From an uncultured Enterobacteriaceae bacterium (lineage in GTDB: Bacteria > Pseudomonadota > Gammaproteobacteria > Burkholderiales > SG8-39), in the NCBI GenBank assembly GCA_964576525.1, contig CAZNVH010000002.1, positions 4,121 to 68,120 of the forward strand: a stretch of 64,000 nt of DNA, given 5' to 3'. Numbering within the stretch: the first letter of the stretch is position 1; each line of letters starts with the position of its first letter. The position numbers were made by a program, and so were the translations under genes. Shown here one piece after another: positions 49,858 through 55,079 of the stretch. Below the pieces are notes generated by a model. The model did no database searches, was not told the origin of the DNA, and saw only the letters and a program-made list of their open reading frames with translations.

Positions 49858-50835
49858 ATGAAAGCGATCGAGATCAGGCAGCCCGGCGGACCCGAGGTTC
49901 TGCGCCCGGCGGATCGCCCGCGGCCCGCGCCCAAGCCGCACGAGATCCTGATCAAGGTCGCCGCGGCGGGCGTCAACCGCCCCGACGTGCTCCAGCGCAT
50001 GGGCCACTACGCCGTCCCGCCCGACGCCTCCGACCTGCCCGGCCTGGAAGTCGCCGGCGAAGTGGCTGCCCTTGGCTCTTCGGCAAAAACATATCAACTG
50101 GGGCAAAAGGTCTGCGCCCTGGTGCACGGCGGCGGCTACGCCGAGTACTGCGTCGCGCCCGAGGTGCAGGCGCTGCCGGTGCCGAAGGGCCTCAGCCTGG
50201 TCGAGGCCGCATCGCTGCCCGAGACCTTCTTCACCGTGTGGAGCAACGTCTACGACCGCGGCAGGCTCGCACCGGGCGAATCGCTCCTGGTGCAGGGCGG
50301 CAGCTCGGGTATCGGCGTGACCGCGATCCAGATGGCGGCCGCGACCGGCAACCTCGTATTCGCCACCGCCGGCTCGGACGACAAGGTCGCCGCCTGCCTG
50401 CGGCTCGGCGCGGCGAAGGCGTTCAACTACAAAACTCAAGATTTTGAAAAAGAAACTCTTTTGGCTACTGCGGGCAAGGGTGTGGACGTGATCCTCGACA
50501 TGGTCGGCGGCGACTACGTGCCGCGCGAGCTGAAGTGCATCGCCGAGGACGGGCGGCTGGTGTTCATCGCCTACCTGCGCGGGCCGAAGACCGAGCTGAA
50601 CATCGACGCGGTGATGCGCCGGCGGCTGACGATCACCGGCTCGACGCTGCGGCCCCGCACGGTGGAGTTCAAGGGCGCGATCGCGCGCAGCCTGCGCGAG
50701 AAGATCTGGCCGCTGATCGAGGCCGGCCGCATCAAGCCCGAGATCTACAAGACCTTCCCGCTCGAGCAGGCGGCCGAGGCGCACCGCCTCATGGAGAGCT
50801 CGCAGCACATCGGCAAGATCGTGCTTACACTCTGA
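49858..50835 (+). CDS. NAD(P)H:quinone oxidoreductase (zeta-crystallin / MDR family)
   Basis: 325 aa. GVNRPDVLQRMGHY and GGSSGIGVTAIQ motifs. Confidence 0.9.
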   Translation: MKAIEIRQPGGPEVLRPADRPRPAPKPHEILIKVAAAGVNRPDVLQRMGHYAVPPDASDLPGLEVAGEVAALGSSAKTYQLGQKVCALVHGGGYAEYCVAPEVQALPVPKGLSLVEAASLPETFFTVWSNVYDRGRLAPGESLLVQGGSSGIGVTAIQMAAATGNLVFATAGSDDKVAACLRLGAAKAFNYKTQDFEKETLLATAGKGVDVILDMVGGDYVPRELKCIAEDGRLVFIAYLRGPKTELNIDAVMRRRLTITGSTLRPRTVEFKGAIARSLREKIWPLIEAGRIKPEIYKTFPLEQAAEAHRLMESSQHIGKIVLTL

Positions 50836-51204
50836 CCGTGACGCGCCACAGCAAACCCGTGGTGGTCGTCTCCGCGATCGTTCGGTGCCTCGCACCGTCG
50901 ATTAGGAGAGGTACGGCGCGGCACCCTGCGCCTTCCGGCCGGCAAGCGTAGAACCTCCCTCTCGGACTGGAGCGAAAGGTTGGGGCGGAGTTTTTCCGGG
51001 CGCGTGCTCCCGATCGACGAATCCGTCGCGCTGCGTTGGGCGGAAATCGCGGCACGCGCGGAGCAGTCAGGCCGGCCCGGATCGTTCGCCGACGGATTGA
51101 TTGCCGCGACCGCGCTCGACCACGGACTGACGCTTGTCACGCGCAACGTGACTGACTTCGAGCCCTTCGGGGTCTCGCTCCTGAATCCGTGGACAGCGAC
51201 CTGA
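50836..51204 (+). pseudogene. decayed vapBC-type toxin-antitoxin remnant (antitoxin stub + frameshifted, N-terminally deleted PIN toxin)
   Basis: 50835-50879 reads TVTRHSKPVVVVSAI (Phd/VapB-like). 50980-51204 encodes only the C-terminal half of a PIN/VapC (GRVLPIDESVALRWAEI...DGLIAATALDHGLTLVTRNVTDFEPFGVSLLNPW). There is an in-frame stop and a frame change between the two pieces. Confidence 0.6.
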
Positions 51205-51410
51205 TCAAGACAGGAAGTATCAGATCAAGCAGCATATCGTCGTTTCAGCGCAAGCGGGAACCCACGCTGCTCGATGGTCCGCTACCAACCCGGAGCGGAC
51301 GTTCGCTTAACTTATGATTGGTCCTAAGAACCTGGGCAGGTCATTGCAAAAAGGGTAGTTCGTAAAACGCCACCCCAATGTATCCCTTCGTCCAATGCGA
51401 CCCAGAGCCC

Positions 51411-51533
51411 CTATGACGTGGACGAGCGCAAAAGTTCTGGCAGTTCCTTCGTCCCGGCCCTTACTTCAGGCAATTTTCCAATCAGGAGCCGAAACTGTTC
51501 GGCGGAGAGTTTTCCGTATTCCTTAGTCGCCAT
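51411..51533 (-). pseudogene. 40-codon ORF, probable 5' remnant of a decayed gene
   Basis: MATKEYGKLSAEQFRLLIGKLPEVRAGTKELPELLRSSTS*. Protein-like reading continues downstream only after frame changes (..GIHWGG.. / ..FYELPF..). Confidence 0.3.
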
Positions 51534-51628
51534 ATAGGGTCCCTCAAAGTACGTCGCCCTGTGCTTACGGGAGTATCCTTATAACCGCAATTTCCAAGTG
51601 CCCCATTAGGGTCATCCTCGTTTTATAC

Positions 51629-53323
51629 ATGTTAGGCGTCACAGCTGTACCAAGAGCCCAAAATTCGATGACGAGAACAGACACCTCTAGTGAGGGCGCA
51701 TTTGTTTTTCGAAAGCACGACAACGTGGGCTCTGCCTCGGCTGAGGAAGATTCCCAGTTCCTCAACGATTGTTTCGTTGACACCGGAGATCTTGCTCAGC
51801 TTGCCGATTGCAAAGGTCCAAAAAGGATCATTGTCGGAAGGACCGGCACAGGTAAGAGCGCTTTGATATATGAGTTAACGCGTTCGTCCGATCATGTCGC
51901 CCAGCTCTCGCCGCACGATCTTTCGCTCAACTTTATTGCCACAAATAAAGTAATCGCATTCTTCGAAGAGGCAGGCGTCAATCTAGTACCTTTCTATGTC
52001 CTGCTCTGGAAACATCTTCTCGTTGTTGAGCTATTAAAGAAAAAGTTCAACATCGTCAACGAAGACGCGCACCGAGATTTCATGCGCAATGTCCGGTCCC
52101 TCCTTTATAAAAAGGATCGGTACAAAGAACAGGCGATAGACTATCTCGAACAGTGGGGCAATAAATTCTGGTTGACGACGGAACAACGAATTCACGAATT
52201 AACCAACCGTGTCGAGAGCACGTTAACTGGTGCAGTAGGCGGAAAGCTGGCGGGCATCGAGCTCTCGGCTACCGGCGCAAAAACACTTTCTACTGAACAG
52301 CGCGAAGAGGTCGTCGAGCACGGCTTAGATGCGGTCTCGAAGATTCAGATTCGAGAGCTCGACAACATGATTCAACTGCTAGCGGACAACGTCTTCGATG
52401 ACCCGAAGAATCGCTACTATGTAACAATAGATATGCTCGACGAGGATTGGGCCGATGATCGAATTCGGTTCAAGCTTATTCGCGCCCTAATAGACGTAGT
52501 ACGACGATTCAAGGCGGTCCCCAACGTTAAGGTAGTCCTGGCTCTCCGACAGGATCTACTCGATAAAGTTATTCATTCCGACCCTATTCCAGGTTTCCAA
52601 GAAGAAAAATACAGATCGATGTACATGGGCCTTCAATGGAATCATAAGGATCTAGTAGATGTGGTTGAGCGAAGAATTAACCAATTAATTCGCCGTCGTT
52701 ACACGAAAGGCGATATATTTTTTGGTGACGTGTTTCCAAAGAATGTGGATAGCAAAAACACCCTTACCTACATGTTAGATCGCACGTTCCTCCGTCCTCG
52801 CGACATCATCGTGTTCATAAATGAATGCCTCGAATTATCCGAAGGGCGGACTAACATATCGGGAGCCGTGATAAAAGAAGCGGAACCCCGCTATTCGGCG
52901 GAGCGTCTGCAGTCCCTTGCCGATGAGTGGCGTACGATTTACCCGAACCTTTTTCATGCTGTCCAACTCTTTCACGGATTGTCCGAACATTTTTCTATAG
53001 GTGAACTTACTGAGCAGGTCCTTGTAGAGCGATATAACCATATTGCGTCGGATATTCTCGACGTTCACTCTGATCCAATTACAAGGTCGCTTTCCACCTT
53101 ATATACAGAGAGTGGGAACTTCCTTGCAGTCCGAAACTTCGTGCTAAGACAGTTTTATGTCACGGGACTTATTGGCATTAAAGCCGGTCCGACCGACCCC
53201 ACCACTTGGTCTCGCCTGTTTACCGCACGCGCAAGCCTAAGCGCCGGCGACGTTCGACCATCCTCGTTTGTTGTCATACACCCAATGTTTCATCGGGCTT
53301 TGGGGATCAGGTACTCGCACTAG
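51629..53323 (+). CDS. orphan P-loop NTPase, family unassigned
   Basis: 564-aa ORF in low-GC DNA. Walker A GRTGTGKS (nt 51836-51859) and a Walker-B-like YYVTIDMLDED about 190 aa later. No TM segments. Alternative start ATG at 51668. Confidence 0.8.
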   Translation: MLGVTAVPRAQNSMTRTDTSSEGAFVFRKHDNVGSASAEEDSQFLNDCFVDTGDLAQLADCKGPKRIIVGRTGTGKSALIYELTRSSDHVAQLSPHDLSLNFIATNKVIAFFEEAGVNLVPFYVLLWKHLLVVELLKKKFNIVNEDAHRDFMRNVRSLLYKKDRYKEQAIDYLEQWGNKFWLTTEQRIHELTNRVESTLTGAVGGKLAGIELSATGAKTLSTEQREEVVEHGLDAVSKIQIRELDNMIQLLADNVFDDPKNRYYVTIDMLDEDWADDRIRFKLIRALIDVVRRFKAVPNVKVVLALRQDLLDKVIHSDPIPGFQEEKYRSMYMGLQWNHKDLVDVVERRINQLIRRRYTKGDIFFGDVFPKNVDSKNTLTYMLDRTFLRPRDIIVFINECLELSEGRTNISGAVIKEAEPRYSAERLQSLADEWRTIYPNLFHAVQLFHGLSEHFSIGELTEQVLVERYNHIASDILDVHSDPITRSLSTLYTESGNFLAVRNFVLRQFYVTGLIGIKAGPTDPTTWSRLFTARASLSAGDVRPSSFVVIHPMFHRALGIRYSH

Positions 53324-53547
53324 GGGTAGAAGTGGTCCCACTCGTTAAGACAGTCCCGAGGGGTTTCTTAGGTGCAGTCCCAGCAGATTGAGGGTTATCC
53401 ACGGCGGCGCGCGCGTGGCGCAAGCCACGCATACGAGCGCGACGCGGTGGGAATGATCCAGTCGTAGCCGGAGAACGACAGGTCCCGGCCGGCCTGAGGT
53501 CCGTCATGTCCGCGCCCACGTCAGCTCTACAGCCTTCCATGAAGGTC

Positions 53548-53574
53548 TGGTGCATCGTGGTGCAAAGTGGTGTA
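53548..53574 (+). promoter_or_regulatory. three direct TGGTG(C/T)A repeats spaced exactly 10 bp, candidate RHH operator overlapping a TATCCT -10-like box
   Basis: Repeats at 53548-53554, 53558-53564 and 53568-53574. The last ends 11 nt before the RHH start codon. Confidence 0.45.
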
Positions 53575-53584
53575 TCCTGAGGCC

Positions 53585-53842
53585 ATGTCGATCGCCGAAC
53601 GGCCCGTGCGTCAAAGCGTAAGTCTTCCCGCGCGCGTCGCTCGCCGGGTGAAGTCACTGGCGCAAACGAGCAAGACGAGCACCAGCCGCGTCATCGCCGA
53701 TCTCATCGAGTCCGGGCTCGACGCCCGGGAGCAGGAAAAAAAGCGCTTCTTCGAATACGCCGACCGCCTTTCGCGCTCCCGCGACCCGGAGGAGCAGAAA
53801 CGCCTCAAGGAAGAACTCTCCCGCATCACCTTCGGTGAGTAA
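53585..53842 (+). CDS. ribbon-helix-helix (CopG/Arc-like) protein, putative antitoxin/repressor
   Basis: MSIAERPVRQSVSLPARVARRVKSLAQTSKTSTSRVIADLIESGL has the beta-strand then two-helix RHH pattern. The track ORF starts at 53567. Confidence 0.65.
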   Translation: MSIAERPVRQSVSLPARVARRVKSLAQTSKTSTSRVIADLIESGLDAREQEKKRFFEYADRLSRSRDPEEQKRLKEELSRITFGE

Positions 53843-54084
53843 TGCCGAAGATCCAGTGGACCGGGCTTCCTCCAGCGCTTCGCGACCACCTGTTCGAGAG
53901 GCTGCGCGAGCGCAGGATCACCGCCGAGGACCTCTACCTGCTGAAGGTGTGGCGGGAGTCTGAACCCGAGGCGCCGGATGGACCCTGGTACAAGGACTTC
54001 GGCTCCTTCAAGATCTGCGGCGAAGGACAGTATCCGAAGACGTTTTTGCTCCGAGGCCAACCTGCCAAAGGAGAAAAACTCTAA
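53842..54084 (+). CDS. 80-aa hypothetical protein, translationally coupled to the RHH gene
   Basis: TAATG overlap at 53840-53844. Sequence ...ITAEDLYLLKVWRESEPEAPDGPWYKDFGSFKICGEGQYPKTFLL... No motif I can assign. Confidence 0.6.
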   Translation: MPKIQWTGLPPALRDHLFERLRERRITAEDLYLLKVWRESEPEAPDGPWYKDFGSFKICGEGQYPKTFLLRGQPAKGEKL

Positions 54085-54191
54085 CGACATTCTGTGCCGC
54101 GCCTTGAATGTTCCCGCCATGCCGCGGATTCACATCGCGCAATGAGCGCCTGAGCTGACCTTACAATAGCGGTCTACTGCACGGAGGGTGC

Positions 54192-55079
54192 ATGTTCAAG
54201 GAAGGTGTACTCAAGGGTAAGCGCATCCTGATTACCGGCGGCGGCACCGGCCTGGGCAAAGAGATCGCCGCGAAGTACCTCGAGCTCGGCGCCGAGCTGT
54301 GGATTTGCGGACGCAGGGGTGGTGTTCTCGACCAAACCGCCAAAGAGCTCACCGCGAAACACGGCGGCAAGGTCAAAACCCATCCGATCGATATCCGCGA
54401 CGCCGCCGCGGTCGATGCGATGGTGCAGCGGATCTGGGACGAAGCCGGACCGCTCACCGGCCTGGTCAACAACGCCGCCGGCAACTTCATCAGCCCGACC
54501 AAGGACCTGACGCCGAACGGCTTCAACGCCATCGCCAACATCGTGTTCCACGGCACGTTCTACGTGACGCAGGCCGTGGGCAAGCGCTGGATCGCAGGCC
54601 ACCACAAGGGCTCGGTGATCTCGATCCTGGTGACCTGGGTGCATACCGGCTCGCCTTTCGTGGTGCCCTCGGCGATGTCCAAGGCCGGGCTGCACGTGAT
54701 GACCAAGTCGCTCGCGGTCGAATGGGGCAAGTACGGCATCCGCCTGAACGGCATCGCGCCCGGGCCATTCCCGACGGAAGGCGCGACCCAGCGCCTGCGC
54801 CCCGGCGCCAAGGACGGCTTCGGCGACGCCACCGCGCTCAATCCGATGCGCCGCGTCGGGCGCATGGAGGAGCTGCAGAACCTCGCGACCTTTCTGATGG
54901 CCGACGGCTGCGAATGGCTCACCGGCGAGACCATCGCGGTCGACGGCGCGGGCTACCTCGCCACCGGCGCCGCGGGCTACTACGTCGAGTTCGACAAGCT
55001 CTCCGACGCCGACTGGGAGCGCATGCGCGCGATGATCAAGGCGACGAACGACAAGGACCGCGCCGGCAGGACGGCGTAG
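54192..55079 (+). CDS. SDR-family oxidoreductase, 2,4-dienoyl-CoA reductase-like
   Basis: ITGGGTGLG, NNAAGNFISP and SAMSKAG are a DECR-like pattern. Confidence 0.85.
   Translation: MFKEGVLKGKRILITGGGTGLGKEIAAKYLELGAELWICGRRGGVLDQTAKELTAKHGGKVKTHPIDIRDAAAVDAMVQRIWDEAGPLTGLVNNAAGNFISPTKDLTPNGFNAIANIVFHGTFYVTQAVGKRWIAGHHKGSVISILVTWVHTGSPFVVPSAMSKAGLHVMTKSLAVEWGKYGIRLNGIAPGPFPTEGATQRLRPGAKDGFGDATALNPMRRVGRMEELQNLATFLMADGCEWLTGETIAVDGAGYLATGAAGYYVEFDKLSDADWERMRAMIKATNDKDRAGRTA

Follow-up and report, generated by a model that had tools for sequence, protein, structure and literature searches.

Which role can be assigned to a gene that stands as the only intact reading frame in a segment whose composition departs from everything around it? 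The question is raised by a 64,000-nucleotide (nt) stretch of contig CAZNVH010000002.1 (assembly GCA_964576525.1), referred to here as the window, in which a segment of low guanine plus cytosine (GC) content carries a gene for a P-loop ATPase (Table 1). The segment is best explained as a recent horizontal acquisition into a variable intergenic slot of a Burkholderiales-like chromosome, located between the genes for a quinone oxidoreductase (QOR) and a short-chain dehydrogenase/reductase (SDR). By analogy with a characterized relative, the ATPase is probably a single-protein defense against phages, and other invading DNA could be a further target. Defense is the best supported reading because the anti-phage protein DS-41 belongs to the same NCBIfam family, homologs occur in defense hotspots and islands, and homologs of its own branch received very high scores from DefensePredictor.

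The foreign origin of the low-GC segment is close to certain. A preliminary description of the window had reported one sharp break in composition, with 25 G+C positions out of 60 in 52021-52080 and 39 out of 60 in 50221-50280, as well as a codon usage visibly unlike that of the flanks. The recount returned both values exactly, and in 1-kb intervals along the 64 kb the GC content decreases from 0.675 ± 0.025 outside the region to a minimum of 0.47 inside it (z = -8.3); all intervals with GC below 0.58 overlap 50.8-53.9 kb, so that this is the sole compositional trough of the window. The G+C content at third codon positions (GC3) is 0.525 in the ATPase open reading frame (ORF) vs 0.89-0.92 in the flanking genes for a TAXI-type TRAP solute-binding protein, QOR and SDR, and given this difference from its native neighbors the segment is unameliorated and probably recent. 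The 5' border lies directly after the stop codon of a VapC remnant; the edge pieces (51205-51667 and 53324-53390) have GC values of 0.51-0.55, the content is back to 0.65 from 53391, and maximum-likelihood change points in GC were placed at 51306 and 53180. The ends of the segment bear no convincing terminal repeats, direct or inverted, neither an integrase nor a transposase ORF was seen in the QOR-SDR slot (ORF list and domain-library scans), and the flanks are not shared with any of the 116 other family loci used for comparison, which comprise 4 loci obtained by exact protein identity (L003-L006), 32 viral or proviral contigs of IMG/VR and 80 metagenome contigs. The same segment, including both junctions, was assembled in identical form from two separate sequencing runs.

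The slot extends over 50836-54191, between QOR (49858-50835) and SDR (54192-55079). The nearest genomes are uncultured Burkholderiales metagenome-assembled genomes whose QOR protein is 77-83% identical, and the ATPase, the VapC fragment, a ribbon-helix-helix (RHH) gene and a small gene named here orf80 are absent from the slot in 80 of 80 related loci. In one of them (L015) the QOR and SDR genes are 12 bp apart and the slot is empty; in three (L009, L010 and L012) a LysR regulator occurs together with a conserved small ORF, joined in L010 by an isochorismatase-like gene. The slot is a variable site with a content specific to this lineage, which here consists of three unrelated modules of differing GC (a truncated vapC, the low-GC ATPase segment and an RHH+orf80 cassette). 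The segment had been regarded as foreign from the start, and its absence from the slot in all related genomes examined, together with the unameliorated GC3, bears this out; no positional conservation of the gene was encountered.

The ATPase ORF (51629-53323, 564 amino acids, aa) is open and intact and, in agreement with the preliminary description, is the sole intact ORF of the segment. The ATG at 51668 is the probable start, with a predicted product of 551 aa, because an identical database protein (P0001) has 551 aa and nucleotide homology with all other family loci sets in at about 51665-51677. Residues are numbered here on the 564-aa ORF that begins at the alternative upstream ATG 51629. 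Conservation was followed in an alignment of close homologs of the window protein (A1) and in a diverse set of 168 members with 30-74% identity to it. The Walker A (GRTGTGKS) and Walker B motifs read earlier from the ORF are both intact and conserved in homologs: GRTGTGKS, D268, L270, D271 and E272 are invariant in A1, and the window copy keeps all A1-invariant positions. Most of these are also conserved at 95% or above among the 168 diverse members (G70, R71, T72, G73, G75, K76, D268, L270 and D271, and likewise R307/D309, Q324/K327, R349, R385/R389/P390/R391 and N398), E272 being invariant in A1 but below 95% in the diverse set. The set of nucleotide-binding and hydrolysis motifs is complete, with K76, D271/E272 and the conserved arginines R307, R385, R389 and R391.

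The AlphaFold2 model of the protein (63 homologs in the input, predicted local distance difference test score, pLDDT, 86; predicted template modeling score 0.83) comprises a disordered stretch (1-22), a conserved motif region (23-60), a strand (67-70) followed by the Walker A helix, a further strand (90-93), the insertion (about 95-256), strands 263-267, 300-307 and 332-334, a helical lid (about 339-405) and an alpha/beta domain (406-564). From the end of strand 90-93 to the beginning of the Walker B strand (263-267) the model contains helices only, in line with the helical insertion that had been proposed to split the NTPase core, and the fold is predicted to be AAA+-like with a large insertion. 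The best fold matches in the PDB are BrxC, HslU, ORC/Cdc6, RdrA and an archaeal AAA+ protein (E-values of 1e-4 to 2e-2, template modeling (TM) scores of 0.19-0.32), and a Foldseek search against viral predicted structures returned generic AAA+ proteins only. No convincing transmembrane segment was detected, as stated previously: the best 19-residue Kyte-Doolittle window reaches 1.63, contains two Glu residues and is modeled as packed helices.

Some 290 residues at the C-terminus had been left unassigned, and these can partly be attributed to the remainder of the AAA+ core, the RPRD lid and a variable domain of about 160 residues. The lid motif R385-D392 is a candidate sensor-2 or arginine-finger region, a putative role suggested by ORC/Cdc6-type AAA+ lids. 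In the C-terminal domain the mean top-residue frequency is 0.37 and declines to 0.22-0.26 at residues 461-500 and 521-540; residues 441-540, approximately, are the most variable of the protein among the 168 diverse members, followed by parts of the helical insertion, which is moderately variable and least conserved at residues 141-160 and 201-220. Modeled alone, the C-terminal domain attains a pLDDT of 90, and a Foldseek search against the PDB gave no significant fold match (best E = 2.5). Winged-helix proteins scattered among the weak Foldseek matches are not regarded as evidence. The domain is a candidate specificity or sensor module.

The gene had been called an orphan that could be placed in no named family, and neither statement holds. 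The window protein is a clear match to NF047389 ("P-loop ATPase, Sll1717 family"), with 219.9 bits (cutoff 75) and E = 7e-65 over residues 34-558 and model positions 2-454 of 454, similar to the 214-233 bits of its homologs P0024, P0092 and P0118, and its membership in this NCBIfam family is close to certain. In a word-indexed search 474 homologs were retrieved, with identities of 51-74% in 120 cases; their sources are Methylomonas, Gallionella, Azonexus, Methylotenera and numerous metagenomes. An exhaustive HMMER scan of 1.84 billion cluster representatives gave 2,109 matches, 558 at E <= 1e-30. Full-length matches of about 530-590 aa predominate among the best 150 representatives, and a few are shorter or partial. 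The architecture is stand-alone: no additional Pfam domain occurs in the window protein, for which Pfam reported nothing above its curated cutoffs. Neither the protein sequence nor the family profile retrieved a structurally characterized relative from PDB sequences, where the top match was confined to the P-loop (E = 0.0026), and no papers on "Sll1717" or "phrog_13260" were found in the literature. The latter is a phage protein family that the window protein matches; GenBank phage records contributed two weak matches only, at 22% identity.

Plasmids are frequent carriers. PLSDB holds 244 plasmid records with a family member (106 from Klebsiella and 77 from Escherichia), 119 of them conjugative, in which the protein is annotated as "DNA repair protein", "ATPase", "ATPase involved in DNA repair" or "hypothetical". 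A different form was observed on megaplasmids of the Cupriavidus metallidurans CH34 type (H8-H10, e.g., NC_007971.2, 144649-145911), where the match covers residues 12-434 only (77% of the query, 45% identity); here the variable C-terminal domain is either lacking or exchanged for another sequence, and the protein may represent a truncation or a domain swap.

One line of evidence for the functional assignment comes from DS-41 (AAA2, WP_033812887.1, 502 aa), a single gene that protects Escherichia coli from several BASEL phages (PMC13092281), with a 3.6-log reduction for phage Bas63 (PMC13092281; DefensePredictor, Science 2026). A search with the published DS-41 sequence returned many family members named "P-loop ATPase, Sll1717 family" by NCBI. 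DS-41 (P0270) scores 414 bits on its own equivalog model and 97.6 bits on NF047389, on which the window branch scores higher (219.9 vs 97.6 bits). The window protein matches the hidden Markov model DS41_1_antiphage (NF053860) with 41.9 bits (E = 6.4e-11, residues 36-438), below the equivalog cutoff of 370, while relatives of DS-41 reach 371-414 bits. A profile-profile comparison of the window branch (A1) with the DS-41 branch (A5) gave a probability of 93.8% for residues 262-430 vs 247-410. Because both proteins pass NF047389 and because of this profile match, they are considered distant members of one named family; judged by these scores, the window protein is a distant relative of DS-41 and not its equivalog.

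Two further members were designated "Predicted novel defense gene" by DefensePredictor, WP_000026497.1 from E. coli IncF plasmids with a mean log-odds of 14.7 and WP_261735718.1 with a log-odds of 15.4, the stringent cutoff being 4 (PMC13092281). Identity to the window protein is 34% for the former, with 98% of the query aligned, and 41% for the latter, within the N-terminal 165 residues. Both share branch, architecture and NF047389 family with the window protein and differ from it in host and replicon context (IncF plasmids); their assignment to defense is a machine-learning prediction, and neither appears in the table of tested systems (PMC13092281). On IncF plasmids of clinical Klebsiella and E. 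coli, WP_000026497.1 is widespread near the RepFIB replicon and IS26 and is annotated as "hypothetical" or "DNA repair protein"; an example is the E. coli IncFIA/FIB plasmid NZ_CP081687.1 (L203, 33907-35580).

The genomic context of the family points in the same direction as DS-41. Clustering of the ORFs within ±5 kb in the 116 loci revealed no recurrent partner gene, and because of this the ATPase gene is regarded as a self-contained module, as the preliminary description had it. The largest neighbor cluster, a CI/S24-type repressor present in about 10 of the 116 loci, was rejected as a partner since these loci are mostly proviral and the association reflects prophage location. Domain scans of 233 neighboring ORFs from 43 non-redundant loci identified terminase, portal, gpA replication protein and CI/S24 repressor genes in proviral loci, and ResIII/helicase, SNF2, MmeI/Eco57I/Type ISP restriction-modification, NERD and resolvase genes among others in metagenome loci. 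In four P2-like prophages (L095, L097, L098 and L099) the gene is located between portal/terminase (gpQ/gpP) and gpA, an interval near cos described as a hotspot for defense systems, old/tin and many others among them (Rousset et al., 2022, PMC9122126). Two metagenome contigs (L156 and L158, 8001-9602 in each) carry a family member between full-length DrmD and DrmMI (E = 0) of class-1 DISARM, and these internal copies are either a nested separate defense gene or an accessory component. The gene adjoins PglW in L189, HmaA in L180 and an HKD-Snf2 candidate in L166. The closest homologs (66-74% identity) adjoin a Gabija-like AAA_15/21 plus UvrD pair, Mut7-C/PIN genes with an rve fragment, or DUF4145. 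In Methylomonas (L004) the gene follows MazEF, with an SNF2 helicase about 5.7 kb away; in Azonexus it is found at the end of a Trb-type integrative and conjugative element (ICE), adjoining a serine recombinase; in IncF plasmids it occupies an accessory region a few kb from RepFIB/SopAB and an integrase, and in an Enterobacter IncF plasmid (L204) it directly adjoins an intact vapBC pair.

Several points weigh against a role in defense. Pfam, NCBIfam and PADLOC revealed no effector domain, be it a nuclease, a protease, TIR or another type, in agreement with the preliminary description, and no detectable domain accounts for the way in which a lone ATPase would stop a phage. PADLOC v2 returned only a weak match to PDC-M28C (E = 4.6e-4, residues 244-345), an identity that was judged not meaningful and was rejected. 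The similarity to DS-41 is remote (41.9 bits vs the cutoff of 370), and the validation rate of DefensePredictor is 45% overall, rising with the score (PMC13092281). The associations with defense genes were counted without a background rate and are supportive, not statistical proof; many family loci have ordinary metabolic neighbors, and the frequent carriage near plasmid replicons is also compatible with a plasmid-centered role. Finally, the leader upstream of the gene contains no sigma-70 consensus promoter, and a consensus scan for promoters and terminators did not exceed the shuffled expectation. The proposal that the gene is a defense candidate has gained from DS-41 as a member of the same family, from the hotspots and from the DefensePredictor scores, but activity of the window protein itself is something we still infer.

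A scheme of action can be outlined for a defense ATPase of this kind. The protein has complete motifs for ATP binding and hydrolysis with no recognizable enzymatic effector domain, and needs no dedicated neighbor gene. The variable C-terminal domain, perhaps together with the insertion, might recognize a phage-derived protein or a nucleic-acid cue, and ATP-dependent oligomerization or remodeling, as in AAA+/STAND-like immune ATPases, would then block phage replication, either directly or via growth arrest of the infected cell. Provided that the function is defense, such a sensor-oligomer mechanism is a tentative and somewhat doubtful proposal. It is rather unlikely that the window branch constitutes a distinct single-protein immune system lacking a canonical effector, in which an ORC/Cdc6-like switch would be coupled to C-terminal recognition and the resulting assembly would stall phage replication or packaging or deplete ATP. 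To our knowledge, no such effector-less assembly mechanism has been described for any defense ATPase.

Among the alternatives, the one that survives best assumes that the ATPase serves its carrier elements, through plasmid or prophage maintenance, exclusion of rivals, control of replication or partition or an addiction-like effect, and that the chromosomal copy in the window is a stranded passenger. The 244 plasmid records with 119 conjugative plasmids, the positions near RepFIB/SopAB and an integrase in IncF plasmids, at the end of the Trb-type ICE and near the CI repressor or gpA in prophages, and the resemblance of the AAA+ fold to ORC/Cdc6 and to clamp-loader-type ATPases of DNA transactions are all consistent with this role. 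Nevertheless, no particular gene for replication, partition or transfer is linked to the ATPase gene throughout; P2-like prophages carry it in a hotspot of interchangeable cargo and not at a core position, many chromosomal copies reside in defense loci or have no mobile-element genes nearby, and DS-41, the one tested member of the family, acts against phages from a plasmid vector in E. coli. On this evidence a role centered on the mobile element is unlikely.

Two alternatives are less probable still, and to a similar degree. The ATPase could be an accessory subunit of a larger system (DISARM, BREX/Pgl or SNF2-helicase), in which case the lone copy in the window would be inactive or orphaned. 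The DrmD-DrmMI setting in L156 and L158, PglW in L189, HmaA in L180 and the SNF2 gene about 5.7 kb away in Methylomonas suggest such a relationship, as do the best PDB folds, which include BrxC and RdrA, ATPase subunits of multi-gene systems. Yet among the 43 loci whose flanks were long enough such neighbors occur in no more than about 5, and the systems differ from locus to locus; DS-41 works as a single gene, the window protein and its closest homologs are found with no partner of this type, and nesting of unrelated defense genes inside larger defense loci is common. An accessory role is improbable. A neutral or decaying passenger, intact by virtue of recent arrival, silent and useless to its host, is likewise improbable: the slot already holds a truncated vapC, neither a sigma-70-type promoter nor a clear ribosome-binding site was seen and the codon usage of the gene departs strongly from that of the host (GC3 of 0.525 vs 0.9), but the 551-codon frame is fully open with all A1-invariant positions kept, the identical segment and junctions from two sequencing runs indicate stability in the population, and a promoter could be provided by the co-transferred 463-nt leader. 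A role as a housekeeping or "DNA repair" ATPase, to which the annotation of some plasmid records ("DNA repair protein", "ATPase involved in DNA repair") would point, is very improbable and was rejected, given that no repair family of Pfam or NCBIfam is matched, no housekeeping homology was found, the gene is absent from the closest relatives, its distribution is patchy and on mobile elements, its composition is foreign, and the labels are generic with no experimental basis found.

Single-protein defense thus stays the preferred reading of the ATPase, and the remaining content of the slot can be considered separately from it. The features of the segment and of the slot are collected in Table 1.

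Table 1. Coordinates of the ATPase gene, its sequence and structural features, the low-GC segment and the other residents of the QOR-SDR slot (positions within the window).
Feature	Position	Strand	Basis or remark
Sll1717-family P-loop (AAA+-like) ATPase gene	51668..53323	+	Probable start; product 551 aa; NF047389 match, homology start
Walker A, G70-R-T-G-T-G-K76-S77	51836..51859	+	Alignment A1 and 168 diverse members
Walker B strand and motif, Y263-Y-V-T-I-D268-M-L-D271-E272	52415..52444	+	Alignment A1 and 168 diverse members
All-helical insertion, residues ~95-256	51911..52396	+	~165 residues between Walker A and Walker B core halves; AlphaFold2 model
Lid motif, R385-T-F-L-R389-P390-R391-D392	52781..52804	+	Conservation; aligns with SPRE of the DS-41 branch
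C-terminal domain of ~160 residues, residues 406-564	52844..53323	+	Most variable part of the protein
Horizontally acquired low-GC segment	51205..53390	.	~2.2 kb, GC ~0.48; borders by composition only
Low-GC non-coding leader, 463 nt	51205..51667	.	GC 0.51-0.52; upstream of the ATPase gene
5'-truncated VapC (PIN) pseudogene	50905..51204	+	PIN domain positions 67-111 of 120; GC 0.667, GC3 0.79
Mobile two-gene cassette, RHH-like gene and orf80	53585..54084	+	Independent of the ATPase; pair conserved in unrelated contexts

The leader gave no blastn or tblastx match in the 116 other family loci; it was co-transferred with the ATPase gene and presumably contains the promoter of that gene. A 40-aa ORF (MATKEYGKLSAEQFRLLIGKLPEVRAGTKELPELLRSSTS) is found in it on the minus strand (51411-51533), divergent from the ATPase gene. 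No counterpart of this ORF adjoins other family members and the leader contains no longer reading frame; the ORF could be a gene remnant of the donor genome or a chance ORF.

A decayed vapBC had been described upstream of the segment, of which a truncated vapC was recovered but no trace of vapB. The VapC remnant corresponds to residues 45-137, approximately, of an intact VapC of 138 aa; the missing N-terminal part amounts to about 44 residues and contains the first catalytic Asp. The pseudogene is a separate, older resident of the slot with host-like GC, outside the low-GC insert.

Downstream of the segment, the RHH-like gene encodes 85 aa from the ATG at 53585 (91 aa if the ORF is read from the GTG at 53567), and its stop codon overlaps the start of orf80 (TAATG; 53842-54084, 80 aa). 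The GC3 of this cassette is 0.75-0.77. At least 3,975 homologs of orf80 were found, all of 80-81 aa, the best 120 being 83-94% identical, in hosts that include Betaproteobacteria and Acidobacteriota (Vicinamibacteria, Thermoanaerobaculia and Acidobacteriia) among others; no match to orf80 was obtained in Pfam, NCBIfam, PADLOC, PHROG or the PDB. All seven orf80 loci fetched contain an abutting gene of about 85 aa directly upstream in otherwise unrelated neighborhoods, and in the one pair compared the product of this gene (L205) is 55% identical to the RHH protein of the window. The pair resembles a mobile module of the toxin-antitoxin type, extremely conserved and as yet unassigned; it deserves attention of its own and may be more novel than the ATPase.

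If active, the window ATPase would add a betaproteobacterial example to a large and widely mobile family of effector-less defense ATPases. The Sll1717 family comprises more than 550 clusters at 50% identity and is present on conjugative IncF plasmids, in P2-like prophages and in DISARM loci. One distant member (DS-41) is experimentally proven to act against phages, and the ATPase studied here is not a new kind of protein. Its branch is a good target for first mechanistic work, which could address how phages are stopped by an AAA+ protein acting alone and whether specificity is set by the C-terminal domain, and WP_000026497.1 is an easily testable representative. In annotation the gene should be labeled Sll1717-family ATPase, putative anti-phage protein, and not orphan or "DNA repair protein".

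The ATPase can be compared with several known systems, some of which were considered as identities and rejected. A type II toxin-antitoxin module is not supported, as no conserved small gene is adjacent, the nearby MazEF, VapBC and VapC remnant vary among loci, and the toxin-antitoxin pairs nearby differ in GC from the ATPase gene; a transposition ATPase of the TniB/IstB/TnsC type was rejected since no transposase is linked. KAP NTPases (PF07693) resemble the window protein in the large insertion that separates Walker A from Walker B, and a few homologs carry a precomputed PF07693 match, but the window protein scores 10 bits (cutoff 20) and its insertion is without the defining transmembrane helices. 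STAND/Avs proteins also combine a P-loop NTPase, a possible nucleotide switch in both cases, with a variable C-terminal region that could act as a sensor; Avs1B is the best remote match of DS-41 (PMC13092281), and sub-threshold Pfam scores were obtained for nSTAND3 (12.7 bits, cutoff 27.2) and AAA_16 (15.1 bits, cutoff 32.6). Avs proteins are far longer, and a STAND/Avs identity was discarded, as the window protein has no N-terminal effector and no TPR, WD40 or LRR repeats, its C-terminal domain being a 160-aa non-repeat one. BrxC of BREX and RdrA of RADAR, both defense-associated, share with the window protein a helical insertion in the P-loop/AAA+ core and match it structurally (E = 1.3e-4 for BrxC and about 3e-3 for RdrA). 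They differ in that the global TM score is low (0.19-0.27) and the identity 11-12%, no BrxC or RdrA sequence family is matched by the window protein in Pfam, PADLOC or NCBIfam, and both work in multi-gene systems (PglX/PglZ/BrxA-B of the BREX operon and the RdrB deaminase, respectively), of which no genes occur in the slot.

The closest parallel is DS-41. It differs in that the window protein fails its equivalog model, confident alignment extends from Walker B to the lid only and the C-terminal domains do not align. Both are stand-alone proteins of about 500-550 aa that pass NF047389 and have neither a recognizable effector domain nor a partner gene. The Walker B segment of the window protein aligns with VLVDKxDE of the DS-41 branch and its RPRD lid with the invariant SPRE, and the two proteins have a common layout, in which a short, conserved motif at the N-terminus is followed by Walker A (GxRGxGKS), a long insertion of helices, Walker B (DxxDE) and a lid with conserved PR[DE].

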